From NCBI GenBank assembly GCA_041309505.1, contig JBFYZM010000195.1, positions 1-44,587 of the forward strand: 44,587 nucleotides of DNA, given 5' to 3'. This stretch comes from Candidatus Krumholzibacteriota bacterium (GTDB lineage Bacteria > Krumholzibacteriota > Krumholzibacteriia > Krumholzibacteriales > Krumholzibacteriaceae). Within the stretch, counting starts at the first letter, position 1, and each line of letters begins with the position of its first letter. The position numbers and the translations under genes were made by a program. The notes beneath the pieces are model-generated. The model saw only the letters and a program-made list of their open reading frames with translations, had not been told where the DNA came from and did no database searches. This document shows, piece after piece, positions 5,113 through 44,587 of this stretch.

Positions 5113-5141
5113 TTGCATTTATCCCGAATAGCCCCATAATT
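5113..5141 (+). promoter_or_regulatory. Candidate sigma70-type promoter for the RRM gene
   Basis: TTGCAT (5113-5118), a 16-17 nt spacer, then CATAAT/ATAATT (5135-5141). This would give a 5' leader of about 150 nt in a locally AT-richer stretch. Confidence 0.3.
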
Positions 5142-5291
5142 ATGCATGTCGGACAGAGTTGGAGTTAATGTTGGGAATCCAGTTAAAGACGATAGACGGA
5201 GCCTGCCAGGTTGATCCTCTCTATTCGGGTCTTACGAGATTCCTTTCCAACAAAATCTGCGACGGGAATTTTTGACCGATAGGAGGTCAGC

Positions 5292-5585: not shown

Positions 5586-5644
5586 CACCCGCCCGGGAAA
5601 ACCATCGGCACTGAGTGGCAGGCTCCTGTGCTGATAATGAAAAC

Positions 5645-5671
5645 AAGGGAAGCCGATCGTCGGCTTCCCTT
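5645..5671. terminator. Strong hairpin between convergent genes; fits best as terminator of the minus-strand MscS gene
   Basis: AAGGGAAGCCGA-tcg-TCGGCTTCCCTT is a perfect 12-bp stem. On the minus strand it is followed by GTTTTCATTATC. On the plus strand the trailing tract is not T-rich. Confidence 0.6.
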
Positions 5672-5740
5672 GCATTATCCCCGTCCGAATGCGAGGGCCC
5701 CGGTCATCACGCGGCGTTCTCCGCGGCGCGACGCCCGCGG

Positions 5741-6796: not shown

Positions 6797-6826
6797 GATC
6801 CTCTCCTGTCGCCGCCGCTCACTATT

Positions 6827-7969: not shown

Positions 7970-7985
7970 ATGGGTTCTCCGCCGG

Positions 7986-8816: not shown

Positions 8817-8838
8817 GGTTCGCCGGGTGACCGTCGGA

Positions 8839-24556: not shown

Positions 24557-25003
24557 TTATTTCTTGAGATCCCACCAACCGTACCAGTTCACGTAGATGG
24601 CCACCTTCTGCGCGGTTTCGTCGAACTGCGAGGCTTCGTCGAGACCGAGATACCGGTCCCAGATATACTCGACGCCGATCGCGGCGACGATCCCCCTCGG
24701 CGAGTACGCTTCGAGGGATATTCCGAGGCCGGGGCCGACGGAGTTATTGTAATCGAGGCCTTCCGTATCCGCCTGGTACCGCAGGGTGGCGTACGTGTTG
24801 AGCGTCACGTTCCCCCACTTCGCCCAATCCACTCCCTGCTTGATCCAGCCGTTCAGGAGCAGATTGCTGTCCCCGTCCTTCGGTATCTCCCCTCTCAAAT
24901 CACCCCACGTCGAGCCGCGAAAGCCGACGATCGCCTGTGCGCTTCCCGAGCAGAGAACGAGACACGTGAGCGCGAGAGCAATTCCGAACGCGTGACGTTT
25001 CAT
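24557..25003 (-). CDS. Small secreted protein, probable 8-strand outer-membrane beta-barrel (hypothetical)
   Basis: Signal peptide is MKRHAFGIALALTCLVLCSGSAQA. The mature part of about 124 aa has alternating hydrophobic/aromatic beta-strand patterns (VTLNTYATLRYQA, GLGISLEAYS, VAAIGVEYIWD, VAIYVNWYGWW). It lies 4 nt downstream of the GT-C gene. Confidence 0.55.
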   Translation of the reverse strand: MKRHAFGIALALTCLVLCSGSAQAIVGFRGSTWGDLRGEIPKDGDSNLLLNGWIKQGVDWAKWGNVTLNTYATLRYQADTEGLDYNNSVGPGLGISLEAYSPRGIVAAIGVEYIWDRYLGLDEASQFDETAQKVAIYVNWYGWWDLKK

Positions 25004-25006
25004 GTC

Positions 25007-26410: not shown

Positions 26411-26417
26411 AGAGTCA

Positions 26418-28658
26418 TCACCACAGCGTGACCATCGCGTCCGCGATCGCGAGCACGCGGTTCACCGCGCCGATATCCGCCCGGTCAAAAACGACGCCCG
26501 CGAGGCATTCGGGAAAATCCTCCGAAGGTTGGCGCACGACGCGCGCGACGATCCCCGGGAGCGGGACGTTCCTGTCTCCGACGACGACTTCGACTTCCGC
26601 CCGGTCCCCTTCGGCCAGATTCTCGCGCGCGGCGAGGAGATACCCGCTCCGCGAGATGTTCCGGATCACTCCGTACGAGACGCCGCCCCCCTTCCCGTGG
26701 ACGACGGCCGGCAGATACACGCGGGCGCGGCGCGCCCGCGCCGTGCGCTGCGGTCTCGGTCCGCGCCGGCTCTCGATGTACGTGAGGTACCGCGTCGCGT
26801 ACCCGGCGAGGAACTTCGAAACGGCGGATTCGTGGAGATAGCGCGACATCACATCCACCTCGCCCGAAGCCCCCGTGACGGCGACGCCGGCGCGCGCGAT
26901 CACGTCCGTTCCCGAGCTCACCGTCTTCACGTGCCTGACGTGCCCCTTGCAGGCGAGCGTCTTGCGCGGGAGCATGATCTCGAGCTCGAGATCGCAGTCG
27001 GCGGGGATCGGCCCCGCGGCGACGAGCGATATGCCGGTCTCCGTCGCGTCATCCGCCGCGGCGACCCGGCGTACCGGTTTCCCGCCGTCGCGATAGGAGA
27101 AGAAGACGGGAACCGCGTCCTCGATGCGGAAATCTCCTCTCCGCTGATAGAATTTCGATCTCGCAAAGAGAATGATCGCCACGGCGAGCCCGCTGTTGAA
27201 AAGCGCCCAGAGGCTGTTCACCGCGATGATGAACTCGTCGCCGCGCAAGCCCAGCAGAAGCTGGAATATCGCCCATATAATCGCGATGACGCTCCCCGCG
27301 AACACGAGCGCCTGCGGGACGACGAGCGGGTACGGGGTCGATGTCTCCAACCCCTTCGGCGTCACCTTGAACTGTCTCGCCCGGCGCGGGAGAAACAGGG
27401 AAAAGAACGATTCGAGATAGGTGAAGAACTTGCCCATGCTGAACTGCTCGAGCAGGAGATACCCCGCATATCCCCGTCCCATCTCGTTGAAGGCGAAGAG
27501 CGAGAGCGCATAGTACGGAACGAAGTGAAGGAGATACGTGATGTCGATGGCGTTCATCGGAAGAATGCCGGTGAAGAGCACGATCGGGGGAGTCACGTAG
27601 AAAACGAGCTTCTGGAATCCCTCGATCGGATAGATGAGGCTCCCGAGGTAGCAGAGCCGCTGCGGAAAGCTGAGCCCCCGCACGAAGAACGGATTCGCCT
27701 TGAAGAATACCTGCCAGCCCCCGAGCCCCCACCGCTTCCGCTGAATATGGAACGGATTGATCGTCTCGGCCGCGAGACCGTAGGCGAGCCCTTCGTTGTG
27801 ATAGACGGACGACCATCCCTTCGCGTGGATGCGGATCGAAGTCAGCATGTCCTCCGTAATAGAGCTCGTCGCGAAGCCGTCGACGTCGTCGAGCGCCGCG
27901 CGCCTCATGAGGGTGCAGCTTCCGACGAAGTAGGCCGCGTTCCAGCGGTCGCGCCCCGGCTGGATGAGGTTGTAGAAGAGCCCCTGCTCGGTCCAGACGT
28001 ACTTCTTTTCGTGGTCGGCGCGGTGCTGGAACGAGTCGATGTTGTAGAACTCCTGCGGCGCCTGGGCGAAGGCGACCTTCTCGTCCTTGAAATAGCCGAT
28101 GAGGCGATCTATGAAATACGGAAGCGGCGCGTGGTCCGCGTCGAAGATGGCGACGAACTCGGCGGTCGAATGCTTCAGCCCGAAGTTGACGTTGCCCGCC
28201 TTCGCGTGCTCGTGGCTCTCCCGCGCGAGGTAGACGCACCCGAGCTCCTCGCAGAGCGCCTTGACCTCGGGACGGTTCCCGTCGTCGAGGAGAAGAGTCC
28301 GGTGCGGATACTTGAGATCGTTGCAGGCGAGGAGCGTTTTCCGCAGAATGGACACCGGCTCGTTCTTCGTCGGGATGAGGACGTCGACGGTGCGTCCGGG
28401 AAGCGGTTCGAGAGCGACGCGCGACAGGGGGCGCCATACCGCAAAGAAGAAAAGAAAGGTCGTCAACGTGCCGAAGCATTCCGCGACGAAGAGCGCCCAC
28501 GAGAAGAAGAGCGCCGATTCGTTGAAAGTCGCCGTGACCCTCCAATAGAGGTAATAGAGGGTCACGATCATGGAGGCGACGGCGACGACGCGGCGAAGTC
28601 CCTCCCCTTTGAGATTTTTAAAATCTTCCACCAATCTACCTTCCTTGTGTGAAGGCAT
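26418..28658 (-). CDS. Processive GT2 synthase (cellulose-synthase-like) with two C-terminal PilZ domains
   Basis: GT2 blocks are VDVLIPTKNEP, LLLDDGNRPE, AKAGNVNFGL, IFDADHAP, TEDMLTSIRIHAKGW and QRKRWGLGGWQ (QxxRW). PilZ-1 has RGDFR plus DATETG. PilZ-2 has an Arg-rich RTARARRARV plus NISRSG. Confidence 0.85.
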   Translation of the reverse strand: MPSHKEGRLVEDFKNLKGEGLRRVVAVASMIVTLYYLYWRVTATFNESALFFSWALFVAECFGTLTTFLFFFAVWRPLSRVALEPLPGRTVDVLIPTKNEPVSILRKTLLACNDLKYPHRTLLLDDGNRPEVKALCEELGCVYLARESHEHAKAGNVNFGLKHSTAEFVAIFDADHAPLPYFIDRLIGYFKDEKVAFAQAPQEFYNIDSFQHRADHEKKYVWTEQGLFYNLIQPGRDRWNAAYFVGSCTLMRRAALDDVDGFATSSITEDMLTSIRIHAKGWSSVYHNEGLAYGLAAETINPFHIQRKRWGLGGWQVFFKANPFFVRGLSFPQRLCYLGSLIYPIEGFQKLVFYVTPPIVLFTGILPMNAIDITYLLHFVPYYALSLFAFNEMGRGYAGYLLLEQFSMGKFFTYLESFFSLFLPRRARQFKVTPKGLETSTPYPLVVPQALVFAGSVIAIIWAIFQLLLGLRGDEFIIAVNSLWALFNSGLAVAIILFARSKFYQRRGDFRIEDAVPVFFSYRDGGKPVRRVAAADDATETGISLVAAGPIPADCDLELEIMLPRKTLACKGHVRHVKTVSSGTDVIARAGVAVTGASGEVDVMSRYLHESAVSKFLAGYATRYLTYIESRRGPRPQRTARARRARVYLPAVVHGKGGGVSYGVIRNISRSGYLLAARENLAEGDRAEVEVVVGDRNVPLPGIVARVVRQPSEDFPECLAGVVFDRADIGAVNRVLAIADAMVTLW

Positions 28659-29583: not shown

Positions 29584-32313
29584 TTACTTGACGCTCGCGA
29601 GATCGATCGCGATCGTCCCTCCGCCCATCTGCGGCGGCAGCTCGAACGTGCCGCGGATCATGCAGCGCTCCTTCTCGCTCACGTAGATCCTCGATGCGCC
29701 CGATTCGTCCCCGATCGGCCTGATCTCGACGTTGAAGCACGCATAGGTCCCGGCGGGCACGGTGACGCTTTCCGTGCCGACGACCTTGAGCGACATCGAA
29801 CGCGTCTTCTGCATCTGGAAATCGAACACGCGGAGCGTCGTCTCGTATCCCGCCGCGAGCGGGAGCGCGCCGATGATCGTCTCGAGCGATGAGCCGTCCC
29901 CGAAGGCGGGGGCCGCAAGCGCGACGTCGATCGGCATTTCCTGAGCGCCCATTCGCACGGCGCCCTTGACCGTTGTCCCGGTGAAGTTGATGACAACCGT
30001 CGCGGTGCCCTGACGGACGCCCCAGCGAATCGGCATGAGGGTCGTCGCGTCGAGGTCGAACGTATCGACCGCGCTCTCCCCGCCGCTCGACTGGCTCGTC
30101 GCGACGCGCCACGTCGCCGCGCCCCCCAGCGAACCCTTCACGAGGCTCCGGACGATGTCAATGGGCACTTCCTGGCCGCCGGCGCGGACGTTCCCTTTGT
30201 ACGCGAGGGTCATCGGCTTGAGGAGACTCGCGTCCACCGCGGGCAGCGGCGCCGCCACGGCGTCGTCCGCGGCCTTCGGAGGAGCGGCGAGAACGACCGT
30301 CTTCACATCGACCGTGAGAGCGTCGAGCCGGGTCCGCACCTTCTCGTTCATGGTCTCCTGGTAACGCCCGCCGAGATGCTTCGCGAGGAACTTCTCGGCG
30401 GCCACGGAGAAGGCCGTCCGGTTATCGACTCCCGCGAAACCGTGCCCTTCGTCCGGCGCGACGATATACTCGACGTCGCGGCCGAGGTCCCTGAGCGCGA
30501 CGACGATCTGATCCGATTCGGCCTTCTTCACGCGCGGATCGTTCGCCCCCTGCACGACGAGGAGCGGCGCCTTGATCTTTTCGGCGGAGAAGAGCGGCGA
30601 CTGGCGTTTGAGCATCTCGGCGTCCTCGGGCTTCGACGGATCGCCGACGCGCTCGTTGAATACCGTCTTCAGAACGGCCCAGTAGGGCGGGATCGAGTTC
30701 AGGAGCGTGATGATGTTCGAGGGTCCCACGTACGAGATGCCCGCGGCATAGAGATCCGGCGTGAACGCGAGTCCGGCGAGCGTGGCGTACCCGCCGTACG
30801 AGCCGCCGAAGATCGCGATCTGTTTCGGATCGGCGATCCCCTTCTTGACGAGATACGCGACACCGTCCGTGATGTCGTTCTGCATCGCGTCTCCCCACTG
30901 CTTGTTGCCGGCGTTGAGAAACGCCTTGCCGTAGCCGGTCGAGCCGCGGAAGTTCATCTGAAACACCGCATAGCCGCGGTTCGCGAAGAACTGCGAGTAC
31001 GGATCGTAACCCCATTCGTCGCGCGACCAGGGGCCGCCGTGCACCATGCAGAGAACGGGAAGGTTCTTCTCCTTGACCCCTTTCGGCACGGTGAGATAAC
31101 CGTGAATATCGAGGCCGTCGCGGCTCTTGTACACGATCGGCTTCATCGGGGCGAGATCCTTCGAGGGAAGATCCGGATACGGCCGGTACAGGAGCTCGGC
31201 CTTGCCTGTCGCGCGCGTGTAGAGATAGGTCGCCCCCGGATCGACGTCGCTCGTGACGCCGACGAGCCACAGGCGCTCGTCGCTCGTCGAGGAGCCGAGA
31301 TACACGTCGCCTTCGGGAAGCTGCTTCTGAATGCGCCGGTAATCCTTCTCCCATTCCTTGTCCCGGAAATAGACGCGAAGCCTGTCGCCCACGTAATAGG
31401 TCGCGACGAGCTCGTCCGTTTCCTGCGAGAACTCGGCGCCGCCGAAATCGACCTGATTCAGGGGATCGGCCTCGACGAGCTCTTCCTTGAGCGTCGCCGG
31501 ATCGAAGAGGATGAGGCGCTGGAAATTGATCTCCTTCCCCTTGTCCGACGCCAGGTACACGCGCTGTCCGTCCTTGTGGAAGCGGATCGGGTCGACCGTC
31601 TCGTCCTTGCTGCACGAATAGACGACGATCGCCGTGTCGGGATCGACGCGGAGGATCTCGGTGCCGCCGTCGGCGGTCTGCTTCGACGCGAGCCTGAGGA
31701 TGCCCTGGATGTCGAAAATCCAACTCGAGATCTCGTTGTCGTTTTGCTTCACGAGCGTCCGCTCGCCCGTCGCGATATCGAGCCGGTACGCGTCATGGTA
31801 GCGTTCGTCGCGGTCGTTGAGCCCCACGAAGATGGCGCCGGGCATACCCTTCGGCAGCGCGTATATGGTCGCCGCGACTTTCTCGTACGGGGTGAGATCG
31901 CGCGGCGGAGGCACATCCTGGCCCGCTTCGAGCTTCGCTCTCGGATCCACCGCGTAGACATGGTAGTTCTCGTCTCCGCCCTTATCCTGGATGTAGAGGA
32001 TGTACTTGCCGTCCCGGGTCCAGAAATATCCGCGCACGGGGCGCGTCGTATCGGCCGTCACGGGACGCGCCGCGGCGAAAGGCTCGCTCGCGCCCTTGAC
32101 CCAGATATTCAGGACGTTTTTATACGGTTTGAGGAACGAAATGTGCGAGCCGTCGGGGGAAAGCTGACCGCTCGCGATCTGCGGATCGCCGAAGAGCACG
32201 TCGCGATCGATGATCGGCGGGAGCTTCGCGAGATACTCCCGGTCGATCGCCGCACCCGCGATGCCGGTCAGCACGAGGAGCGCCGCCAGCGTGAAAAGCA
32301 CTCTCTTCATCAT
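29584..32313 (-). CDS. Secreted S9-family prolyl oligopeptidase/dipeptidyl peptidase with an extra C-terminal domain of about 255 aa
   Basis: Start at [22 protein letters not shown] (32313). An N-terminal beta-propeller region is followed by [11 protein letters not shown] (Ser), [10 protein letters not shown] (Asp) and PDEGHGF (His). The sequence continues about 255 aa past the usual end. Confidence 0.9.
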
Positions 32314-32457
32314 CGAATACCCTCCTTGGTAGAGAAACGGGCGGATTTTAAACCCGGCCGACGGCAAAAGCAACCGCTAAATACCTCCGGCCCTGCCCCC
32401 CGCTGCGACTCACATTCCATATTGCGGGAGCGAGACGATCTGTTTTATGCTGACGAC

Positions 32458-33069
32458 ATGAAACACAAATACCTCTATTGTGCGATCTCCGTAAGCGGCG
32501 CTTCGGTGCTCGCGATCGAAATCCTCGGCACGAGAATTATCGGCCCGTATTATGGAGTGAACCTCTTTCTCTGGTCGGCGCTCATCAGCGTTACGCTCGC
32601 CGCGCTCAGCATAGGATACGTCATCGGCGGAAAGTGGGCCGACCGAAAACCTGCGTTTTCGCGCTTCGCATGGATCCTCATCGCGGCCGGCATCTGGATC
32701 GCCCTCGTCCCGCTCATGAAAGGATCCATCGCAGCCGCGGCGAGGCCCGCCGGGCCTCGAGCCGCGCTGCTGATCGCCTCCTTCGTGCTGTTCTTCCCTC
32801 CGCTCGCCGTGCTCGGCATGGTGAGCCCGTACGCATTGAGGCTCCGGGCGCGAACAATCGGAGATGTCGGCCGCTCGGCCGGCGATCTCTACGCGATCTC
32901 GACGCTCGCGAGCGTCGCGGCGGCGCTCCTCACCGGTTTCTTACTCATTCCGAGCTTCGGCGTGAGCGGCCTGACCGCGGCCATCGGAATCGTTCTCGCG
33001 GCGACCGGGATAGTCGGCCTTGCCGCGGCCGCCGTCAAGCGTCCCGGCCTCGCGGGAGGCGATGCATGA
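32458..33069 (+). CDS. Stand-alone membrane module, paralogous to the N-terminus of the next gene
   Basis: Only the last 203 codons of track ORF 30376..33069 are credible: MKHKYLYCAISVSGASVLAIEILGTRIIGPYYGVNLFLWSALISVTLAALSIGYVIGGKWADR... This aligns residue-for-residue with the N-terminus of 33066..34586. Its stop overlaps the next start (ATGA). Confidence 0.7.
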   Translation: MKHKYLYCAISVSGASVLAIEILGTRIIGPYYGVNLFLWSALISVTLAALSIGYVIGGKWADRKPAFSRFAWILIAAGIWIALVPLMKGSIAAAARPAGPRAALLIASFVLFFPPLAVLGMVSPYALRLRARTIGDVGRSAGDLYAISTLASVAAALLTGFLLIPSFGVSGLTAAIGIVLAATGIVGLAAAAVKRPGLAGGDA

Positions 33070-35031: not shown

Positions 35032-36132
35032 CTAGATCCCAACCATCGTTGCGCCGAAGAAGGACAGCACCGAGTTGATCGGGTTCGCGATAGCGAGCGA
35101 GGTGCTGCCGGCGAAGAGAAGGCCAATGGCCTTCGGATTCGTCGTTACATCCTGGACCATGAGCGATCCCGAGTCGCCGCTCCCCAGGAACGAGCTTCTC
35201 TTCTGATAGACCAGGATCTGCCCCGTGAACGTCTTCGTGAAGGCATCGCCGCCGGCGCACTCGTTCTCGTACGCAATGCTGACGGTGCCGTTCAAACCGC
35301 TGACGTAGCTGCGGGTGAGACCGGTCGTACGACCGCTCTTCTTGACCAGCTGGCCCACGGAAGCGGCAATCGTCGAGGATGAGAGCACCCCAACCTCGAG
35401 AATCGCGCCGTCATCCCTGACCATGCCGCTGATGATCGTCGCGCTCGAGCAGTCCACGTTGTTGTTCGGAAGGCTGCTCGTCTTGACGAGGGTCGCCACA
35501 TTCTGAGCGCTCGTGGCGACGCAGCCCACATCGATCAGACCGGGCTGAATGATGTAATCGCCCGTCGCGGCCACCTTGCTGTTGCCGCCGGCCACGATAT
35601 CGGCCTCGAACACGTGGTAGTTGCTGAGGATGCGCTTCTGACCGCCCACGCTGATGAGCGAGCCGAGCGTCCCGCCGCAGCAGTACCCGTTCGCGAGATC
35701 ATAGCGCCAGCCGCCGGAGGTCCCGAGCTGGATGGGCGGAGTCTGCTTCGCCGTGTGGCTCGTGCCGCTCGGCGGTTTGCCCATGGCTACGATACGGTCG
35801 GTCAGAACGACCACCGTGTTGACGTCGTCGAGCTTCGTCGGCACGCCGAGCTTCGCCTTCTCGGTCAGAACGAGCACCATGATGGCCGGCTTCCCATCTT
35901 CGCCGATTGTGGTCGCGGTGCCGATGACATCAGGATCGGCCATGAGCTTCGCCGTGTTCTTGTCCTGGATCGCCATCGCTTTCTGGAACAGCGGACTCGA
36001 CGCGTTCATCAACAGATCGGTCTGTCCGCTCGGGGGCGCCGTCGCCGACTCGTCCTTCGAGCAGCCGACGAAGCTCCCAAAGGCCAGAGCCGCGATGAAG
36101 AGAACCAGCAGGACACTGAAGGAGCGCTTCAT
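35032..36132 (-). CDS. Chymotrypsin-fold (S1) serine protease lipoprotein with N-terminal pro-region
   Basis: Lipobox is FGSFVGC. The catalytic blocks are GGTLGSLISVGGQKRILSNYHV (His), NNNVDCSSATI (Asp candidate) and LGSGDSGSLMV (Ser). It resembles alpha-lytic/streptogrisin-like proteases. Confidence 0.8.
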   Translation of the reverse strand: MKRSFSVLLVLFIAALAFGSFVGCSKDESATAPPSGQTDLLMNASSPLFQKAMAIQDKNTAKLMADPDVIGTATTIGEDGKPAIMVLVLTEKAKLGVPTKLDDVNTVVVLTDRIVAMGKPPSGTSHTAKQTPPIQLGTSGGWRYDLANGYCCGGTLGSLISVGGQKRILSNYHVFEADIVAGGNSKVAATGDYIIQPGLIDVGCVATSAQNVATLVKTSSLPNNNVDCSSATIISGMVRDDGAILEVGVLSSSTIAASVGQLVKKSGRTTGLTRSYVSGLNGTVSIAYENECAGGDAFTKTFTGQILVYQKRSSFLGSGDSGSLMVQDVTTNPKAIGLLFAGSTSLAIANPINSVLSFFGATMVGI

Positions 36133-36368: not shown

Positions 36369-36725
36369 TGGGGGCGAATGGATTCGACGGGGATGATAGA
36401 GGCCAGGGAAGCGTGCCGAGGATGCCATCAACCTCGTAAATCAGGTGGCGAACCACAAATGCCGACAACCAGTTGGCAATGGCCGCCTAATTAATTAGGT
36501 GACCCGTCCGCTCCGGCTGCGCCGACGGGGCCGGAATCCGGGCGTCGATAACCGATGGCTAGCGTGTCGACCTGCTCTGGGTTCGCACGCGAAAAGAACA
36601 AGAGCTAGTCCTGTGAATCCCCTGCCTGTTGAGGCTTCACGGGGCGAACAAAACTCGACAGGATACGCACGTAGACGCCCTCGCGGAAGCATCTTCGGAC
36701 GCGGGTTCGATTCCCGCCGCCTCCA
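36369..36725 (+). ncRNA. ssrA: tmRNA (transfer-messenger RNA)
   Basis: The 5' end GGGGGCGAATGGATTCGACGGGG pairs with the 3' end GGACGCGGGTTCGATTCCCGCCGCCTCCA. This gives an acceptor stem with a G3:U wobble and a T-arm GCGGG-TTCGATT-CCCGC; CCA is not encoded. The conserved GTGCCGAGG...CCTCGTAAA helix is present. The tag frame GCC GAC AAC CAG TTG GCA ATG GCC GCC TAA (36461-36490) encodes ADNQLAMAA. Confidence 0.9.
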
Positions 36726-36792
36726 ATTTTCCATCCATGCATGGGGACGGCTTCTGTTTCTATGCCCATCCGGATCCATATCATCATTCCTC

Positions 36793-36821
36793 TTGACACA
36801 ATGTCATATTGTCACTATAAT
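36793..36821 (+). promoter_or_regulatory. Perfect-consensus sigma70 promoter with embedded palindromes upstream of the AAA ATPase gene
   Basis: TTGACA (36793-36798), exactly 17 nt, then TATAAT (36816-36821). The spacer contains TGACA-caa-TGTCA and ACAAT-gtcat-ATTGT. The region is locally AT-rich. Confidence 0.55.
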
Positions 36822-36831
36822 CTGTAATAAT

Positions 36832-38061
36832 ATGACACCCTACTTCAACAGAGATATCTCGTCGGCAGTGAACGACGCTCTCATCGACATGCCGGTTGTC
36901 GTCCTGACGGGGATGCGTCAGACCGGAAAGAGCACATTTCTTCAAAAGGAGCCCGGGCTCAAGCGGCGCCGTTACATCAGTTTCGATGACTTCGCTCAAT
37001 TGGCCGCCGCCAGAGAGGATCCCGACGGGTTCGTGGCGACGGACGAGCCGATTACCGTCGACGAGGCGCAGAAATGCCCCGAGATACTCGGAGCCATCAA
37101 GCGCAGCGTGGACCGCAATCGAATCCCGGGGCGATTCCTGCTGTCCGGGTCGGCGAACTTCTCCATGCTCCGGGGGATTTCCGAATCGCTCGCAGGACGA
37201 GCGGTGTATTTCGTCCTGCACCCGTTTACTCGGCGTGAAATGTCCAAGGCCACAAGGCGCCGGCCGTTTCTGAAGACCTTCTACGACTCCCCTCGCGCTG
37301 CGCGGATGTCCGGGACATATGCGCCGATCAAGCCGGACGAGATCCTGTCGGGCGGAATGCCGTCCGTTTGCCTCGGTGAAGTGAAGAACCGAGCCCTGTG
37401 GTTTCGCGGTTACGAGCAAACATACCTGGAGCGGGATATTCGCGAACTGAGCCAAATCGGCGATATTATCTCATTCCGCAACCTCATGGGTCTCGCGGCG
37501 CTTCGCACGGGACAGCTGCTGAGTCCGAGCCAACTCGGCAGGGACGCGAAGCTCAACGTCGCGACTACGTCGAGGTACCTATCGCTGCTCGAAACTTCCT
37601 ATGTGGCGTACCGGCTGAGCCCCTACTTGCGCAACCGTGCATCAAGACTCATTAAAACCCCAAAGTTGTATCTGGGCGACGCCGGGCTGGCGTGCCATAT
37701 GGCGGGTGTAGGCGGATCGGGAGCCGTATTGCCGGAGCCCTTCAGGGGCGGCGTGTTCGAAACATACGTCGCGCAGAATCTGATGGGGATCTTGGGTGCC
37801 CGATGGCCTGAAGCACGGCTCCATTTTTGGAACGTGCAGGGCCGGCATGAGGTCGATTTCGTCATCGAAGCCGGCCGCTTTTGCATCGCGATCGAGTCGA
37901 AATCGGGAACACGATGGACGGACCGCGATCTCGCCGGTCTCAGAGCGTTCCTATCCGCCACCCCTCACTGCCAAGCGGCGATACTCGCCTACAACGGTAC
38001 CGAGGCCGTTTCTTTGGGAGGAAAGCTCTGGGCGCTGCCGCTGGGAATGGTTCTCTCTTGA
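36832..38061 (+). CDS. AAA-family ATPase with DUF4143-type C-terminal domain
   Basis: Start at ATG 36832 (MTPYFNRDI...). Walker A is LTGMRQTGKST and Walker B is ITVDEAQK. The C-terminal HFWNVQGRHEVDFVIEAG...IAIESKSG has the restriction-endonuclease-like pattern typical of AAA_14 + DUF4143 proteins. Confidence 0.85.
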   Translation: MTPYFNRDISSAVNDALIDMPVVVLTGMRQTGKSTFLQKEPGLKRRRYISFDDFAQLAAAREDPDGFVATDEPITVDEAQKCPEILGAIKRSVDRNRIPGRFLLSGSANFSMLRGISESLAGRAVYFVLHPFTRREMSKATRRRPFLKTFYDSPRAARMSGTYAPIKPDEILSGGMPSVCLGEVKNRALWFRGYEQTYLERDIRELSQIGDIISFRNLMGLAALRTGQLLSPSQLGRDAKLNVATTSRYLSLLETSYVAYRLSPYLRNRASRLIKTPKLYLGDAGLACHMAGVGGSGAVLPEPFRGGVFETYVAQNLMGILGARWPEARLHFWNVQGRHEVDFVIEAGRFCIAIESKSGTRWTDRDLAGLRAFLSATPHCQAAILAYNGTEAVSLGGKLWALPLGMVLS

Positions 38062-38401: not shown

Positions 38402-39106
38402 CTAGCGAAGATCAATGGAGGCAGGATCTGACGAGCCAATCTCATCGCCCCTTTGGAGGGCGTAGACTCGCCAGATCAATCGATCGGGTTTTTCAGCGGG
38501 GAGCATTGATCGATCGATAGTCAAGGCGGTCTCTCGTGTCGGCTCGAGGCGGGCGATCTCTTTGAGCTCTTTATCGTAGAAGCGAACCTGGTAGGAGTCG
38601 ACGCCGGCCATCGGTGTCCACTCCAACCGGATGCTGCCTTCCGAAAGTATCTGCGGCGCGCCCAACGTGAGAGGCTGCGAGGCGCTTTCTCGCGGCGTAC
38701 CCCGCAGCACGATTCGATCGGGTGTCCATGGGCGCCACAACAAGACGAGGGCGGCGACCATCACCAGCAGAACGGTGGCCAATGCAGGGCGCATAGGGAA
38801 GATCCCCATGATGCGCGATATGAATCCCACGCGGCCGGGGGCTTTTTCTCCGACCTCAAAAGGGGTTCTCTCCTGCGGTGTTCCGACTTCGGACGCCACA
38901 AACGCCGTCAGTCGCTCGCGCGCGTCATCCGGATTGGATCCCGCGACGAACTCCTCTTTCCTAAAGGATTGATACGATGCCAATATGGCGCTGCAGCGGG
39001 GGCATGTCTCTACGTGCCGGCGCCCGGGATCGCCGGCCGGAAGCTCCAGCACTTTCGGAATACGTTCGATATCGAAACAGTCGTCGCTTATTTTTCTGTC
39101 GCTCAT
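38402..39106 (-). CDS. Membrane anti-sigma factor (zf-HC2/ZAS-like) with FN3-like external domain
   Basis: Start ATG 39106 overlaps the sigma stop (ATGA). It has HVETCPRC (HxxxCxxC) with an upstream Cys (DDCFD). A single TM helix (ALATVLLVMVAALVLLW) is followed by about 115 aa containing LEWTPMAGVDSYQVRFYD. Confidence 0.75.
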   Translation of the reverse strand: MSDRKISDDCFDIERIPKVLELPAGDPGRRHVETCPRCSAILASYQSFRKEEFVAGSNPDDARERLTAFVASEVGTPQERTPFEVGEKAPGRVGFISRIMGIFPMRPALATVLLVMVAALVLLWRPWTPDRIVLRGTPRESASQPLTLGAPQILSEGSIRLEWTPMAGVDSYQVRFYDKELKEIARLEPTRETALTIDRSMLPAEKPDRLIWRVYALQRGDEIGSSDPASIDLR

Positions 39107-39696
39107 CCCTCCGCCTCCCCCAACGCATTCAATAGTTTTCTCCGCGCTCTCTGCAGCAGGCCTCGAGCTCCCGAGGCCGATTGAATCCCGAGAACACGGG
39201 TGATTTCGTCCACGGGCATGCGCTCGAAACACCGCATCCAGATCACTCTCTGCTCCTCCGGCTCCAGCTTCGAGCGAATCAGGGAGAGAATGCGCTCTTC
39301 GTCTTCGCGCTCCTCGAGCCGCCGCGCGTGATCGGAAGCCGGCGCCTCGATGGTATCGCAATCCGGATCGCCATCCTCGAAAAGGGACACGCGCTCCATT
39401 TCGTTCAAGCAACGGTTTCGGGCGATCACGAACAGCCACGACGAGAACTTCGACCTCCCGCTGAAAGAATCGAGCGCCTGCCAGGCTTTGAGCAATACAT
39501 CCTGACTCATGTCGAGCGCCTTCTCATGCTCCCTGACGTGCCGATAGCACCATAGGTAAACGGTCCTCTGGAACCGGTCGAGCAACTCCGTCGCGGCGAC
39601 CCGTCCGGCCTCGGATTCCCGCGCCGACTGCGCGATCTGCACGAGCGCTTCGTCCGCGAGCTCCGCGAGCTCCTTCTTCCTATGGGACAGATTCAT
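39103..39696 (-). CDS. ECF-type (group 4) sigma-70 family factor
   Basis: Region 2 is YLWCYRHVREHEKALDMSQDVLLKAWQALDSFSGRSKFSSWLFVIARNRCLN. Region 4 is MRCFERMPVDEITRVLGIQSASGARGLLQRARRKL. Confidence 0.9.
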   Translation of the reverse strand: MNLSHRKKELAELADEALVQIAQSARESEAGRVAATELLDRFQRTVYLWCYRHVREHEKALDMSQDVLLKAWQALDSFSGRSKFSSWLFVIARNRCLNEMERVSLFEDGDPDCDTIEAPASDHARRLEEREDEERILSLIRSKLEPEEQRVIWMRCFERMPVDEITRVLGIQSASGARGLLQRARRKLLNALGEAEG

Positions 39697-39706
39697 CGTT
39701 CTTGAA

Positions 39707-42559
39707 TCACGTGACGGATTCGCCTTCTTGTAATTTCTTTCGTCGAAGGGAGAATACTACACCCGCCAGAATCACTACGCCAGCCCCCGCCAGCCAAATG
39801 GAATTGATGAGACGGGCCCCACTCCTCTCCAGCCGGACCCCGAGGTTCCCGTCCCCCACGACCACGAAGCCCGCCCAATAAAACGGGTGACTCGTTCGAG
39901 GCCGAGACCGGATCGCACGTTGCGCCTCCCGCAGGGCGGCGGCCGCCGGCAGACCCGCATCGAGCGACTTGTAAAACTCCTTCATCAGATCCGCCGTCAC
40001 GCGGTCGTCCACCGGCCACAGCGTCGCCACCGTCACGGGCACACCCGCGCTGAGAAACGCGGAGGTCAAGCCGCTCACGCCTTCTCCGACGTTCAACTGC
40101 CCCAGGGCCGATTCGCAGCCTGATAAAACGACCATTGTCGCGCGCATCCGTCCGCCGGTGATGTCTCCCGCGCGGAGGTACGGATCGCCCTGCATTGTCG
40201 AGTCCCCGAGGAGTATGCCGGAGTGCCACGGCCGTTCGTTGTTCACTTCGATGTGGGAGGCCACATGAACGACGTCGAATGCGGCAACGGTATCGTCGAT
40301 CGCAGCCTTGGCGGCCTCGCCTTCGGCCACCGAGACGCGAGCGTAGCGCCGCTCGAGAAATTGCACTTCCCTGTCGGCACCGGCGAGTTTGGCGCTGCGT
40401 GAAGGCACGAGCGCCAGAACCGCGCCCTGTCGCAGCTCAACGCCCGCACGCGGCTTGGCACCCTGCTGTGCATCAGCATCGACGGGCCGGTTCTTCGCGC
40501 GGAGCCACAGGAGAACCGTCGCGGAGGGAACGTAGTGGATCGTCTTCGATTCAAAGAGCGCCGTTCCCGGCTTCCCTTTATGCGAAACGGTGAGCGCCCC
40601 AAAAGGCAGGCTCCAAAAATATAAGTCCGGCGCGATGAGCAGCCGGGATGCTCCCGTAACGAGATCGCTCACATTGCCCAGAATCGCCGTTCCCAGAGAT
40701 GCCTGAAGCTCCATTGCATTGAGATCGGCGGAAGATCCGCTCGATCGCGGCGGCTTGCCGATCGCCCTCCGGTAGAGATCCACGCGCTCGGGAAGATCGG
40801 AGTGCAGCCCGGGAAGCATCGACACGCGGCAACTGTCTCGCGTCACCGCAAACAGGTAACACGACTGATATCCCACGACGAAGTCGAGAAACAAGTCGCC
40901 CGGCTCGAGGGCTTCTCGCTGCAGCCGCGGGAGCGTGGCGATCGGCAGATCGGCGACTTCGGGCGCCGGTTCCGCCTGGCGACGCGGCTCCGTGATTCTA
41001 TCGAGGAGCGTGCGGGCCTTGAGGCGCTGAAATATATCGAACAACGCTTCGACCTTTTTCGGCCCGGCAGTCTCGGGCGGATGCTCGAGAACGATGCCGC
41101 TCGCGTCGACGAGGTCGCGCGTGCCTCCGCTTGCCTCGCGCCACACGAGCGATTGGGTGAATCGACGGCGACCTTCCATGCGGTCCACGGCAAGCATGAA
41201 TGCATCCAGCGCTTCGCTGCTTCTCCCCAGCTCCCGATAGCAGGAGCTGAGCTCCGCCGCCGTCGCCGCCGCCCTCGATCTTTCCTCCTCCGCGGCCATC
41301 CTCCGTTCGATCTCGAGCAGGTATCCCAGCGCTTCGTGCGTTCTCCCCAGTCGCCGCAAGCACTGCGCCATCAATAACTGCATGCGAGCTGCGGAAGCGG
41401 GGAGCGGCGATTTCAGGCCTTGGCTGAGGAGCTCGGCCGCGGCTTGCGTGCTATCCATCGACGTGAGCGCCTGCGCGAGACCTATTACGGCTTCATCGCG
41501 GTCCTTCTTCAGCAGCGCATCGCCGAGCGAGAGGCTCTCGCGATACAGCACGTCTGATGCGTGGAACATCTTCTGCTGATATCGCATGTCACCGAGCAAC
41601 ACCAGCACGCTTCCGAGCAGGCTCCGGAAATTTCCCTCCCTGCATGTCTCGGCCGCCCGGTTCAATATATCGGCCGCTTCACTGTATTGACCCAGGTAAT
41701 TCCGAGCCAGGGCGACGTTGGTTGCCGGCGTGATGGCGCCCTGCGGGTCCCCGACGGCGAGACGCAGCTGATACGCCTGCTCGAAATATTGCGCCGCGAT
41801 GGACATATCGCCGTAAACGAACTCGAGCGTCCCTAGATTGTTGATCGCGTCCGTCTCCTGAGCGCGATCGCCGATATCGCGAGCCAGGTCCCGCGCGCGC
41901 GTATACGCTTCGCGCGCCGAGTCGATATCTTCCAGCATATTTAAAACACGTCCGAGGCCGATGAGCGGCATCAGCTCCGCCTGCCGCAGCTTCTCGGCGC
42001 GGAACAATTCAATGGCGGTCGTGTATTCGGACTTGGCCTCATCGAGATTCCCGCGCAGCAGGTGGACGTAGCCGAGGCCGGTGCGGGCCCATGCCTCGCT
42101 CACGCGGTTGCGGGTCAGGCGGGCGAGCTCGAGGCGCGCGCGGTTGAGCTCCACGCACTCGTCGTATCGTCCCTGCCAGGTGACGGCCAGGCTCTTGTAT
42201 CCCAATGCGGTCATCCAGACGGTCGTATCCCGCGCCGAACGCGCGAGGGCTATCGAGGCGTCGAGCGACGCATATCCCTCGGCGAACTTTCCCGTCATGA
42301 TCTCCGCTCGACCTTTGGTCGCCAGCAATCCGGCGGCGAGCGCGGAGTCCTTCTTCGCCTCGGCGGCCGCGAGAAAGCGAGGAATGACCGCGAGGACGGA
42401 GTCGAACGCGCCGGCATTTGTCAGCGAATCGATCGACGCCAGAGCGCGCGGATCTATCGATGCGGAGGGCGCAGCGAGACTCACGGCCGCTCCAATAGCA
42501 GCGAGGCAAACGGCAATGAACAGAAGGCGTCGAATAGCTCTCTGGCTATTGATGCTCAT
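39707..42559 (-). CDS. Exported TPR-repeat / CHAT-domain (caspase-like) protein with C-terminal TM anchor
   Basis: Start ATG 42559 gives the signal peptide MSINSQRAIRRLLFIAVCLAAIGAAVSLAAPSA. About 450 aa of TPR-like helical repeats follow. The CHAT blocks are FDVVHVASHIEVN (His), MVVLSGCESALG (Cys), ATLWPVDD and HPFYWAGFVVVGD. The terminal TM is IWLAGAGVVILAGVVFSLRRKK. Confidence 0.85.
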   Translation of the reverse strand: MSINSQRAIRRLLFIAVCLAAIGAAVSLAAPSASIDPRALASIDSLTNAGAFDSVLAVIPRFLAAAEAKKDSALAAGLLATKGRAEIMTGKFAEGYASLDASIALARSARDTTVWMTALGYKSLAVTWQGRYDECVELNRARLELARLTRNRVSEAWARTGLGYVHLLRGNLDEAKSEYTTAIELFRAEKLRQAELMPLIGLGRVLNMLEDIDSAREAYTRARDLARDIGDRAQETDAINNLGTLEFVYGDMSIAAQYFEQAYQLRLAVGDPQGAITPATNVALARNYLGQYSEAADILNRAAETCREGNFRSLLGSVLVLLGDMRYQQKMFHASDVLYRESLSLGDALLKKDRDEAVIGLAQALTSMDSTQAAAELLSQGLKSPLPASAARMQLLMAQCLRRLGRTHEALGYLLEIERRMAAEEERSRAAATAAELSSCYRELGRSSEALDAFMLAVDRMEGRRRFTQSLVWREASGGTRDLVDASGIVLEHPPETAGPKKVEALFDIFQRLKARTLLDRITEPRRQAEPAPEVADLPIATLPRLQREALEPGDLFLDFVVGYQSCYLFAVTRDSCRVSMLPGLHSDLPERVDLYRRAIGKPPRSSGSSADLNAMELQASLGTAILGNVSDLVTGASRLLIAPDLYFWSLPFGALTVSHKGKPGTALFESKTIHYVPSATVLLWLRAKNRPVDADAQQGAKPRAGVELRQGAVLALVPSRSAKLAGADREVQFLERRYARVSVAEGEAAKAAIDDTVAAFDVVHVASHIEVNNERPWHSGILLGDSTMQGDPYLRAGDITGGRMRATMVVLSGCESALGQLNVGEGVSGLTSAFLSAGVPVTVATLWPVDDRVTADLMKEFYKSLDAGLPAAAALREAQRAIRSRPRTSHPFYWAGFVVVGDGNLGVRLERSGARLINSIWLAGAGVVILAGVVFSLRRKKLQEGESVT

Positions 42560-42630
42560 ATCTCCGATTCCCAATCGATTGCCGCGGAAGTCTATCTGAT
42601 AGTATACCATGCAGATACTCCCTTCACGGC

Positions 42631-42662
42631 AAGTAATAATGTCTAGAGTGTGATTATTACTT
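42631..42662. promoter_or_regulatory. Perfect 10-bp inverted repeat in the divergent CHAT / RCC1 control region
   Basis: AAGTAATAAT (42631-42640), 12 nt, then ATTATTACTT (42653-42662). It sits inside the AT-richest stretch of this part of the window. Confidence 0.3.
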
Positions 42663-42755
42663 CCTCCGCCTGTCTAATGGAGTAAAGTAGTGATCTCCAA
42701 CATACAAATAATACTGTGGCGAAGCTCTTATCTAACCTTTCAAAGGAGGGGGATC

Positions 42756-44587
42756 ATGAAACGGTTCTCGGTAGTGTTTTGTCTCGTCTGCTTCGGTGTG
42801 CTGTGCCTGGGCACAGGCGCCGTGCGCGGGGAGGCTACCGGATCCATCGTGGGATGGGGCACTCGGGTCCTCCCGGAAAAGTCAGCGCTTGAAAATCTTG
42901 TCGCGATCGACGCGGGCAGTCACGTCGTAGGTCTGAAGTCCAACGGGACAATCGTGGCCTGGGGACGAAACGACTATGGGCAGTGTGACATCCCCATTCC
43001 GAATGCCGACTTCGTAGCTATATCCGTGGGGGGAGAGCACAGTCTGGCATTGAGGTCTAACGGGACAATCAAGGCCTGGGGGCGGAATAATGATCGTCAG
43101 TGCATCGTCCCTGCGCCGAATGCTGACTTCGTGGCGATGTCCGCGGGCGGTTATCACAACCTTGGTTTGAAGTCCGATGGGACGATCGTCGCTTGGGGAG
43201 ACAGCACCCACGGTCAATGCGACGTCCCCGCGCCGAATGCTGACTTTATTGTGGTCGAGGCGGGGGCCAATTTCAGCATCGGTATCAAGTCTGATAGCAC
43301 GATCGTGGCCTGGGGGGATAACAGCGGAGGCCTGTGCGATCCCCCGTGGCCGAACTCAGATATTGTGGCGGTCGCCGCAGGTTATAGTCATTACCTGCGC
43401 CTTAAATCCGACGGGACAATCTATGCCCGGGGATCCAACTACTATGGCCAATGCAACGTCCCCACGCCGAATGCCGATTTCGTGGCGGTCGCCGCGGGCG
43501 GCTATCACAGCCTGGGACTGAAGTCAGACGGGACGATCGTCGCCTGGGGGCATAATGGCTTTGGCCAGTGCACTGTCCCCGCGCCGAACGCCGATTTCGT
43601 GGCGGTCGCCGCGAACCAATATCACAGCATAGGTTTCAAATCCGATGGAACGATTATCATGTGGGGGACAGAGAACTACTGGGGGCAGCAGGTCGTACAA
43701 TCAAATGTTGACTTTGTTGCGGTCGCCGCGGGCTATGCTCACACCCTGGGTCTCCAATATGATGAAACTATCGTCGCCTGGGGGGCCACGGCCGAAGGTC
43801 AGTGCGACATCCCCGCGCCCAACGCTGACTTTGTGGGTGTCGCTGGCGGTCATGCTCACAGCTTGGGTCTCAAATCCGATGGGACAATTGTTGCCTGGGG
43901 AGATAGCAGCTACGGCCAGTGCGACGCCCCCGAGCCCAACACCGACTTCATGGCGGTCGCAGCAGGCTGGAATCACAGTCTCGGTTTGAAATCCGACGGG
44001 ACAATCGTAACTTGGGGGGACAACACCTATGGCCAATGCAATGTCCCTGCGCCGAATGCCGGCTTCGTGGCGATAGCCGCAGGCTCGGGAAGCTATGGGT
44101 TCAGCCTAGGTTTGAAGTCCGACGGGACGATCGTCGCCTGGGGGCATAATGGCTTTGGCCAGTGCACTGTCCCCGCGCCGAACGCCGATTTCGTGGCGGT
44201 CGCCGCGGGCGGCTATCACAGCCTGGGAGTGAAGTCCGACGGGACGATCGCCGCCTGGGGGCACAATTATTCTGGCCAGTGCGCTGTCCCCGCGCCAAAT
44301 GCCGACTTTGTGGCCGCCGCTGGGGGCTCTTATCACAGCCTGGGTCTCAAGTCCGATGGAACGATAGTGGCCTGGGGGGAAAACTACTACGGTCAGTGCG
44401 ACGTCCTAGAACCAAACACAGACTTCGTGGCGATCGCCGCGAACCAATATCACAGCATAGGTTTGAAAAGCTCAGATGCGATCCCCGGGGGGGTATGGAA
44501 CACCAACGACAGCGGAGTAGGTTCGCTACGCCAGGCGATCATCAACGCCAATGCTGCCCCTGACACGAGCCTGATCGCGTTCGCCAT
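42756..44587 (+). CDS. Secreted RCC1-like beta-propeller repeat protein (about 14 blades of 39 aa), 3' end cut by window edge
   Basis: It is not in the ORF track because no stop occurs before the window end. I translated it by hand: AAGGAGGGGG RBS, ATG 42756, signal peptide MKRFSVVFCLVCFGVLCLGTGAVRG. Then come 13 full blades plus 1 partial blade of consensus VAVAAGxxHSLGLKSDGTIVAWGxNxxGQCxVPAPNADF, with no stop through 44587. The last residues (GSLRQAIINANAAPDTSLIAF) look like the start of a CSLREA-type/beta-helix region. Confidence 0.85.
   Translation, partial: MKRFSVVFCLVCFGVLCLGTGAVRGEATGSIVGWGTRVLPEKSALENLVAIDAGSHVVGLKSNGTIVAWGRNDYGQCDIPIPNADFVAISVGGEHSLALRSNGTIKAWGRNNDRQCIVPAPNADFVAMSAGGYHNLGLKSDGTIVAWGDSTHGQCDVPAPNADFIVVEAGANFSIGIKSDSTIVAWGDNSGGLCDPPWPNSDIVAVAAGYSHYLRLKSDGTIYARGSNYYGQCNVPTPNADFVAVAAGGYHSLGLKSDGTIVAWGHNGFGQCTVPAPNADFVAVAANQYHSIGFKSDGTIIMWGTENYWGQQVVQSNVDFVAVAAGYAHTLGLQYDETIVAWGATAEGQCDIPAPNADFVGVAGGHAHSLGLKSDGTIVAWGDSSYGQCDAPEPNTDFMAVAAGWNHSLGLKSDGTIVTWGDNTYGQCNVPAPNAGFVAIAAGSGSYGFSLGLKSDGTIVAWGHNGFGQCTVPAPNADFVAVAAGGYHSLGVKSDGTIAAWGHNYSGQCAVPAPNADFVAAAGGSYHSLGLKSDGTIVAWGENYYGQCDVLEPNTDFVAIAANQYHSIGLKSSDAIPGGVWNTNDSGVGSLRQAIINANAAPDTSLIAFA
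43527..43613 (+). repeat. 87-nt exact intragenic repeat, copy 1
   Basis: Identical base-for-base to 44121-44207 (GACGGGACGATCGTCGCCTGGGGGCATAATGGCTTTGGCCAGTGCACTGTCCCCGCGCCGAACGCCGATTTCGTGGCGGTCGCCGCG). Confidence 0.95.
44121..44207 (+). repeat. 87-nt exact intragenic repeat, copy 2
   Basis: Identical to 43527-43613, at an offset of 594 nt. A further 45-nt exact match links 43473-43517 with 44184-44228. Confidence 0.95.

Follow-up and report, generated by a model that had tools for sequence, protein, structure and literature searches.

A predicted exported TPR-CHAT protein encoded with an ECF sigma factor and a membrane anti-sigma factor: a candidate protease-gated envelope switch in Krumholzibacteriota

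Regulated intramembrane proteolysis (RIP) of anti-sigma factors follows a set order: a site-1 cut in the ectodomain, then a site-2 cut in the membrane. To our knowledge, the activation route is known for few of the many groups of extracytoplasmic function (ECF) sigma factors, and what is most often missing is the identity of the site-1 protease. A candidate for such a protease is encoded on a contig from a Candidatus Krumholzibacteriota bacterium (GenBank assembly GCA_041309505.1, contig JBFYZM010000195.1; its 44,587 nucleotides are the window analyzed here). Three adjacent genes encode a protein with tetratricopeptide repeats (TPR) and a caspase-like CHAT domain, an ECF sigma factor, and a single-pass anti-sigma factor. 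This trio is a real, conserved, and widespread module. A mechanism in which the CHAT protein serves as the site-1 protease is plausible, and the trio probably is a protease-gated switch that carries an outside signal to gene expression.

The closest described counterpart is DdvA/DdvS of Myxococcus xanthus. DdvA contains a CHCC zinc anti-sigma domain, one transmembrane (TM) helix, a flexible linker, and a periplasmic TPR-CHAT region with an H862/C907 dyad (PMC11506125). Removing the TPR-CHAT region makes DdvA a substrate for RseP (PMC11506125). The authors of this 2024 study proposed, without demonstrating it, that signal-induced CHAT autoproteolysis, in trans across a dimer, constitutes the site-1 step; they also discussed a redox contribution (PMC11506125). 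DdvA-like fusions have been reported only from Myxococcota and from one Comamonas (PMC11506125). The preliminary description of the window had used the type III-E CRISPR Craspase system as its comparator. DdvA/DdvS is closer, and the idea of CHAT as a site-1 protease is not unprecedented, having been proposed for it in 2024. A different association is seen in the actinobacterial ECF54 group, which is described without an anti-sigma factor: genes for CHAT, subtilase, and carboxypeptidase proteins lie in the conserved neighborhood, and proteolytic control has been suggested (PMC8999054, PMC7826278). The main text of the 2021 ECF re-classification does not mention CHAT. Within the library searched, no account was found of an exported CHAT protein that is encoded by its own gene beside an ECF/anti-sigma pair in one operon.

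The three genes are co-directional on the minus strand, in the order TPR-CHAT, ECF sigma, anti-sigma. Both the open reading frame (ORF) listing and direct reading of the sequence reproduce the tight packing noted earlier. The TPR-CHAT gene (39707-42559) encodes 950 residues from the start MSINSQ, which is preceded by GGAGA; the longest ORF extends to 42610, where an upstream in-frame ATG is the less likely start. Its TGA stop is followed, after 10 nt, by the ATG of the sigma gene (39103-39696; 197 residues). The sigma stop in turn overlaps the start of the anti-sigma gene (38402-39106; 234 residues from MSDRKI) as ATGA, through which the anti-sigma factor is translationally coupled to the sigma factor. 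No second copy of the trio was found elsewhere in the 44.6-kb window.

The same three genes lie together in more than 20 independent loci, designated here by L numbers (adjacent in L001, L006, L008, L009, L011, L012, L013, L016, L018, L019, and L021, and also in L025, L027-L030, L032, L037, L040, and L043). The order CHAT, ECF sigma, anti-sigma is found in a relative from the genome collection (L001), the 4.1-Mb chromosome of a metagenome-assembled genome (MAG; L006), L008, L009/L010, and one Joint Genome Institute (JGI) contig; in L011 and L012, both of them Candidatus Krumholzibacteriota MAGs, and in L013, with CHAT identity among these as low as 33%; and in a Candidatus Eisenbacteria MAG (L040) and L043 (29% identity). 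Metagenome contigs scanned with the anti-sigma alignment, with results scored by local hidden Markov models, added eleven more loci with this order. Hosts are Krumholzibacteriota, Eisenbacteria, and the sources of unassigned metagenome contigs. In L020 and L034 the order is permuted to sigma, anti-sigma, CHAT, which argues that the linkage has been selected and is not inherited synteny alone. Flanking genes vary between loci, so what is conserved is the trio and not its surroundings. Wherever no CHAT gene was detected, the contig ends too near the sigma gene for a judgment; the two exceptions are very distant pairs (L039 and Corallococcus L041). The arrangement is far beyond chance, and its recurrence supports a conserved functional module. 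The context conservation on which the preliminary description had staked its proposal thus is present in related genomes.

Looser versions occur in the Gammaproteobacteria. Thalassomonas sp. RHCl1 (L004; NZ_CANDNZ010000008.1, trio at 5350-9992 of the locus) encodes an exported CHAT protein without a C-terminal TM helix, then an ECF sigma factor, then a single-pass protein of 228 residues with 'ELRG' outside the membrane. In a marine gammaproteobacterial MAG (L042), positions 1631-8279 encode in succession an ECF sigma factor, a single-pass protein of 219 residues, a homologue of animal haem peroxidase, a protein of 174 residues, and a TPR-CHAT protein. Linkage of CHAT and ECF genes therefore also exists with extra enzymes in between. 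A giant leucine-rich repeat protein of more than 3700 residues follows the L042 TPR-CHAT protein.

The domain structure of the 950-residue protein is as first described. Residues 624-903 (39851-40690, minus strand) match the Pfam CHAT family PF12770 at E=3e-53 (181.5 bits, cut-off 24), over profile positions 9-289 of 289. The preceding TPR-like superhelix covers residues ~37-530 (40970-42451, minus strand), where the AlphaFold2 model forms helix pairs from H37 to H523; TPR_12, TPR_MalT, and related Pfam TPR families span residues ~126-417, and sequence matches in the Protein Data Bank (PDB) are to the TPR of LGN/Pins. Presumably, the superhelix is the sensor or protein-binding part. The model, built with 68 homologues (mean predicted local distance difference test, pLDDT, 90.5; predicted TM-score 0.85), comprises from N- to C-terminus a hydrophobic helix; about 25 paired helices (37-530); an alpha/beta domain (~555-905); and a terminal helix (915-946). 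When the model was compared with the PDB by Foldseek, the top matches were to human separase (1.5e-16), Csx29 (8EEY_B; 4.4e-16), and DdvA (8.5e-16). As modeled, then, the protein has the TPR-CHAT architecture of separase, craspase, and DdvA, with a predicted caspase fold of clan CD type. Searches against PDB sequences were less informative: the CHAT domain alone gave only weak separase matches and did not recover DdvA, and the full-length profile was swamped by TPR proteins. DdvA was recovered by the fold search only.

The catalytic dyad can be placed by homologue alignment at His769 (in VVHVASH; 40253-40255, minus strand) and Cys815 (in LSGCES; 40115-40117, minus strand). Each residue is kept in 112 of 114 aligned homologues and in every trio orthologue, all of which read H-[VAI]-A-[AST]-H … L-[SA]-G-C-E-S; His765 is invariant across the 114. 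In a phmmer comparison, LSGCES aligned with the GCSS segment of separase. Such near-universal conservation of the putative dyad indicates selection for catalysis, and the earlier judgment that the dyad is intact stands.

The protein also carries predicted signals for export and anchoring, as had been anticipated. A Sec-type signal sequence (MSINSQRAIRRLLFIAVCLAAIGAAVSLAA; 42470-42559, minus strand) includes a hydrophobic segment at residues 12-30 (Kyte-Doolittle score 2.59), and by hydropathy all complete orthologues have an equivalent. A C-terminal TM anchor (39710-39817, minus strand; Kyte-Doolittle 2.19-2.28; within the model's terminal helix) leads into a short basic cytoplasmic tail (…IWLAGAGVVILAGVVFSLRRKKLQEGESVT) containing RRKK, and a TM helix with a basic tail likewise ends all complete orthologues. 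Both the signal sequence and the C-terminal TM helix with its Arg/Lys tail extend to more distant ECF-linked CHAT proteins, permuted-order loci included; CHAT proteins that do not adjoin a sigma gene (L003, L005) have neither. From the last CHAT strand (FYWAGF), the tether to the TM helix runs for a constant 18-24 residues across the ECF-linked orthologues. From hydropathy and the positive-inside rule we infer that the whole TPR-CHAT body would lie outside the cytoplasmic membrane, with the protease domain near the membrane surface. Tat export was rejected (the RR pair is not kept in orthologues), as was a sorting signal of the PEP-CTERM, LPXTG, or GlyGly-CTERM kind (orthologues have no conserved motif before the helix, and no NCBIfam sorting domain matches).

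The 197-residue protein belongs, by its sequence matches, to the ECF (group IV) sigma-70 family, in agreement with the initial reading: Pfam Sigma70_r2 (E=7e-16) and r4_2 (E=8e-6) match, and no other regions; NCBIfam TIGR02937 (sigma70-ECF) matches at 84.6 bits (cut-off 42.9); and PDB matches are to ECF sigma factors.

The third protein is predicted to be a single-pass anti-sigma factor in which a cytoplasmic helical domain with a zinc motif is joined through a TM helix and a linker to an FN3 ectodomain. The AlphaFold2 model has helices at residues 13-74; disorder at 75-106; a TM helix at 107-123 (38738-38788, minus strand), where a hydrophobic block of alignment columns is conserved family-wide; a disordered linker at 124-142; and a beta-sandwich at 145-234 (38405-38674, minus strand; pLDDT ~90). 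Alignments of relatives define a putative zinc-binding CHCC motif, C10…H31-x3-C35-x2-C38 (38993-39079, minus strand), whose four residues are invariant in 17 close relatives; conservation among 150 distant representatives is 97% at the Cys positions and 89% at H31. For the beta-sandwich, the top Foldseek PDB matches are FN3 domains and monobodies (E ~1e-4), and profile matches to FN3 chains are weak. Alignment, model, and fold search thus bear out the HxxxCxxC motif, single TM helix, and FN3 ectodomain of the preliminary description; its zf-HC2 assignment rests on the motif, with no Pfam or NCBIfam family, zf-HC2 and anti-sigma profiles included, matching at E<=0.1. The motif and the predicted helical bundle are present despite this lack of a profile match. 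The anti-sigma ectodomain and the CHAT body are placed by prediction on the same, extracytoplasmic side, also as first proposed. None of the three computational outcomes that the preliminary description named as fatal to its proposal (a dyad lost in alignment, opposite predicted sides, a gene context absent from related genomes) was obtained.

The protein belongs to a large family without a curated model. Run exhaustively with HMMER over 1.84 billion representative proteins, the family profile matched 3066 relatives at E<=1e-3, of which 1017 reach E<=1e-10 and 171 reach E<=1e-30. At E<=1e-10 the family amounts to about 1,000 clusters (50% identity). Word-indexed protein searches underestimate the family, returning 18 and 43 matches versus the 3066. 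Among the family matches listed, essentially all are full-length (~215-250 residues; the best 150 have 164-253), those with any name are annotated 'hypothetical protein', and traceable members come mainly from uncultured phyla of the Fibrobacterota-Chlorobiota-Bacteroidota (FCB) group.

The linker between membrane and FN3 domain contains a further conserved element, V133-L134-R135-G136 (38699-38710, minus strand), within a predicted disordered periplasmic segment (pLDDT <50 for 124-142). Across the best 150 representatives, R135 never varies (150/150), L134 is kept in 123/150, position 133 is V or I in 107/150, and G136 occurs in 104/150; the positions around the motif vary freely. The motif Arg lies a median of 13 residues from the end of the TM helix (10th-90th percentile, 11-17). 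Even the barely related Thalassomonas anti-sigma factor has LRG. The motif is a candidate site-1 cleavage or recognition site.

These features suggest a model for a three-component module that connects envelope to cytoplasm, in which CHAT is a signal-gated site-1 protease that cuts the anti-sigma linker, with intramembrane cleavage and sigma release to follow. The anti-sigma factor (N-terminus inside, one TM helix, FN3 domain outside) would hold the ECF sigma factor at the membrane through its zinc-motif cytoplasmic domain. The TPR-CHAT protein, exported via Sec, would stay on the outer side of the cytoplasmic membrane, held there by its C-terminal helix, and the short fixed tether (~22 residues) would keep the caspase-like active site close to the membrane. 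CHAT would be switched on by a signal, probably a protein or some other ligand that the ~490-residue TPR superhelix captures. The protease then would cut the disordered linker beside the membrane, the most likely site being Val-Leu-Arg-Gly or its immediate vicinity, ~13 residues above the membrane; Arg at P1 would suit several clan CD proteases, including separase, gingipain R, and metacaspases. With the FN3 plug lost, an RseP-type site-2 protease would cut within the membrane, and cytoplasmic proteases would clear the remaining anti-sigma fragment, leaving the sigma factor free.

Several lines of evidence argue for this mechanism: strict linkage, permuted orders included, together with apparent selection on the dyad; the shared predicted compartment and the two short tethers of fixed length; the invariant Arg-containing motif in a predicted disordered linker; and the gammaproteobacterial CHAT genes beside ECF/anti-sigma pairs (L004, L042), along with the precedent of the DdvA fusion. 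What is inferred comprises the interaction of the two proteins, the cut and its position, the signal, and the regulon. Overall, cleavage of the anti-sigma linker by a signal-gated CHAT protease is the reading adopted here, tentatively, with its chance judged just short of even. A bolder version, in which a large undescribed family of three-protein envelope sensors uses a tethered TPR-CHAT protein as ligand-gated site-1 protease and cuts a zinc-motif (ZAS)-TM-FN3 anti-sigma factor precisely between Arg and Gly of Val-Leu-Arg-Gly, is put forward more hesitantly, as perhaps a third of the way to certainty.

Several observations weigh against the proposed cleavage. The proteolytic step is unproven even for DdvA, where dyad mutants had no phenotype under the conditions tested, in which the signal was absent (PMC11506125). 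A distant Corallococcus homologue keeps 'IRG' without an adjacent CHAT gene, and a very distant sigma/anti-sigma pair (L039) also has no CHAT gene; the motif therefore is not strictly bound to a CHAT neighbor. The Arg could be conserved for structural reasons or for a role at the membrane interface. Linkage in an operon would be just as expected of a protease that is no more than a product of the sigma factor's autoregulated operon, and the CHCC motif would also allow redox control from within the cytoplasm alone.

The autoregulated operon is the substance of the main rival explanation, in which CHAT is output rather than input: an exported protease acting on other envelope or foreign proteins (processing secreted repeat proteins, for example, or degrading damaged or invading proteins), with an unrelated site-1 protease or stimulus inactivating the anti-sigma factor. 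ECF operons often hold target genes, and the authors of the ECF classification allow that neighbors may be regulators or targets. The region upstream of the CHAT gene bears on this point. A divergent intergenic region (42560-42755), presumed to hold the operon promoter or operator, separates the trio from a plus-strand gene (42756-44587) that runs off the window end; the latter encodes a secreted protein with signal peptide MKRFSVVFCLVCFGVLCLGTGA and at least 11 RCC1-type repeats (117-nt period, 11.4 copies). At the same position, L006, L008, and the JGI contig encode other large secreted beta-propeller or beta-helix proteins (LVIVD or beta-helix) with C-terminal domains of FlgD_ig or type IX secretion system (T9SS) type. 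The divergent gene is a possible regulon member or signal source, and its presence in several close loci favors the output explanation, as do the other enzymes between the sigma pair and CHAT in L042. However, more distant trios (L001, L011, L012, L013, L040) do not keep the divergent secreted gene, whereas the CHAT gene is always kept. The DdvA fusion demonstrates that a TPR-CHAT region can be a physical part of an anti-sigma factor, and a membrane tether with a short fixed linker suits a membrane partner better than soluble substrates. CHAT as output thus is unlikely, although it deserves the most serious attention among the rivals.

The intergenic region has features of its own. The window shares with L006, L008, and L009 an aligned block at 42633-42680 (minus strand; ATT[A/G]GAC … ATCACA), which includes the inverted repeat GTAATAAT (42660-42653) -N12- ATTATTAC (42640-42633). 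This block, common to the closest orthologues, may be a promoter or operator, or may merely reflect recent shared ancestry of the four closest loci; it is unrecognizable in more distant loci. A consensus scan detected neither a sigma-70 consensus promoter nor a minus-strand terminator, and enumeration of bipartite motifs upstream of the CHAT gene in nine loci yielded no ECF-type promoter common to more than three.

A second rival gives the TPR-CHAT protein a binding role: as co-sensor or protector it would bind the FN3 domain and gate another site-1 protease, in the manner of RseB with RseA or TcpH with TcpP, and its catalytic center would serve for self-processing or be unused in signaling. 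TPR arrays are protein-binding scaffolds, and the predicted tethers would put the two proteins next to each other in one membrane; the DdvA periplasmic domain is at least a steric block to RseP, and its dyad mutants lack a phenotype. Yet a role of this kind does not sit easily with a dyad of which each residue survives in 112 of the 114 homologues, and the trio neighborhoods have no other conserved protease gene. This second rival appears improbable.

Release of the sigma factor mainly through thiol oxidation of the cytoplasmic CHCC domain, as in ZAS proteins of the RsrA/ChrR type, with the periplasmic parts secondary at most, is more doubtful still. The CHCC residues are invariant in close relatives and highly conserved family-wide, and redox has been raised for DdvA. 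Many anti-sigma factors with the ZAS motif, however, are not redox sensors (RslA versus ChrR). The L043 anti-sigma protein, as called, has no N-terminal zinc motif, yet TM helix, VLRG motif, FN3 domain, and CHAT neighbor all are kept. Redox release also would leave the conserved CHAT gene, the FN3 domain, and the linker motif unexplained.

Finally, a degenerate or remote Craspase-like CRISPR accessory module (Csx29, Csx30, CASP-sigma) can effectively be excluded: the TPR-CHAT domain class, the linked ECF-type sigma gene, the Foldseek match to Csx29, and a weak match to the NCBIfam Csx29 model (NF041237, E=9e-4) speak for it, but that match scores 18.2 bits against a cut-off of 300, the protein is predicted to be exported and membrane-anchored where Csx29 is cytoplasmic, the 44.6-kb window has no cas-related Pfam match among its ORFs, no Csx30, and no CRISPR-like array, none of these is found in the related loci, as judged from their called genes, and PADLOC assigned no defense system (generic TPR matches and a weak BovA match only). 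The lack of cas genes had been noted at the outset.

The remainder of the window is ordinary chromosome, encoding GH92 and GH2 glycosidases, glycosyltransferases, an OPT transporter, and MscS, as well as two peptidases whose C-terminal domains are of T9SS type (an S8 subtilase and an M14 carboxypeptidase), an S9 peptidase, and a transfer-messenger RNA (tmRNA). The S8 subtilase (1346-4198, plus strand) has two PKD domains and a Por_Secre_tail, the M14 carboxypeptidase (8839-11154, minus strand) ends in a FlgD_ig domain, and each resembles T9SS-type cargo. Together with the named relatives of the trio, such cargo fits an FCB-group host (Krumholzibacteriota/Eisenbacteria-like). A family-2 glycosyltransferase of cellulose-synthase type (26418-28658, minus strand) ends in a PilZ domain, which suggests exopolysaccharide synthesis controlled by cyclic di-GMP. 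Several long antisense ORFs without family matches (1178-4096, minus strand; 30376-33069 and 24992-26431, plus strand; and others) are shadow ORFs typical at ~62% GC, not genes.

Closer to the trio, the tmRNA gene (36370-36728, plus strand; Rfam, 192.8 bits) is directly followed by an AAA_14/DUF4143 ATPase gene (36820-38061, plus strand), and this stretch has the lowest GC content in the window (0.578). Because tmRNA genes commonly serve as integration sites, the two may be what is left of a small island that separates the trio from the rest of the chromosome. A lipoprotein gene (35032-36132, minus strand) ~2.3 kb downstream of the anti-sigma gene encodes a LAFGSFVGC lipobox, a GDSGS serine-protease motif, and a weak Nal1_C match; it probably is unrelated to the trio, since it is not conserved beside the trio in other loci. 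In a public metagenome, JGI contig Ga0105105_10002061 (L014; 8265 bp) carries the same trio with an anti-sigma factor 100% identical to that of the window; the window's organism, or a near-identical strain, therefore occurs there. The protein designated P0019 is the same CHAT protein as the window's.

A caspase-like protease has been proposed as a sigma trigger only once, for DdvA in 2024, and the proposal is unproven. One difficulty with DdvA is that enzyme and substrate are one polypeptide; in the trio, enzyme and candidate substrate are separate proteins, and the candidate cleavage motif, with its invariant Arg135, is sharply defined. Among Krumholzibacteriota, Eisenbacteria, and uncultured lineages related to them the module is abundant, and its looser form in Gammaproteobacteria includes a named genome, Thalassomonas sp. 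RHCl1. If site-1 cleavage by CHAT is true, the trio would add a new protease class to RIP, as the first clan CD cysteine protease shown to start it; widen the theme of TPR-CHAT proteins freeing sigma factors from CRISPR immunity to general envelope sensing; offer a two-protein (trans) system for testing the DdvA hypothesis; and establish an anti-sigma family of about a thousand clusters that Pfam does not cover.

How, then, does the locus compare with known systems? With the canonical RIP pathways (RseA of E. coli, cut by DegS then RseP; RsiW of B. subtilis, by PrsW; MucA of P. aeruginosa, by AlgW) it shares a single-pass anti-sigma factor with a periplasmic 'plug' that would hold an ECF sigma factor. 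Here, however, the candidate site-1 enzyme is a clan CD-like cysteine protease encoded in the same operon, where the canonical enzymes are serine proteases or metalloproteases encoded elsewhere, and the sensor would be a TPR array instead of a PDZ domain. ECF54 differs in being described without an anti-sigma factor, whereas this locus has a dedicated one coupled to its sigma factor. In the type III-E Craspase system (Cas7-11/gRAMP, Csx29, Csx30, and CASP-sigma/RpoE), a TPR-CHAT protease of the same fold class (Foldseek E=4.4e-16 to Csx29) likewise is tied to release of an ECF-type sigma factor, as is proposed here. Csx29, however, is cytoplasmic, bound to Cas7-11, and activated by an RNA-guided target, and the inhibitor at this locus is a classical transmembrane anti-sigma factor, not Csx30.

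DdvA/DdvS has the most in common with the trio. Both have an ECF sigma factor with a single-pass anti-sigma factor whose cytoplasmic domain bears the CHCC motif (zinc binding here is predicted from the motif); both have a TPR-CHAT region with an intact His-Cys dyad beside a flexible juxtamembrane linker (the periplasmic site here is predicted); and for both the proposed logic is cleavage by CHAT at site 1, then by RseP. Foldseek aligns DdvA with the CHAT model at E=8.5e-16 and a TM-score of ~0.45, and the His-Cys spacing is 46 residues here versus 45 in DdvA. The differences are equally clear. DdvA is one polypeptide, whereas here, as in all relatives, separate genes encode the two parts, so that the proposed cleavage is in trans between two proteins and not within a homodimer. 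The TPR-CHAT protein has its own signal peptide and C-terminal anchor (type I), where that of DdvA follows an N-terminal anchor; the anti-sigma factor has an FN3 ectodomain, which DdvA lacks; and a comparison of the anti-sigma profile with PDB sequences detected no similarity between the two anti-sigma domains. The hosts are candidate phyla of the FCB group rather than Myxococcota, and the neighborhood here contains no CRISPR system or cyclic-oligonucleotide-based antiphage signaling system (CBASS).

With anchors at opposite ends, an added FN3 domain, and anti-sigma domains without sequence similarity, the trio is not a simple split of DdvA; an independent solution of the same kind, built from two proteins, describes it better. 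The DdvA fusion serves as a 'Rosetta stone' for the locus, in showing that a zinc-motif anti-sigma factor and a periplasmic TPR-CHAT region can act as one machine. The locus is best read as a two-protein, trans-acting analogue of DdvA/DdvS.

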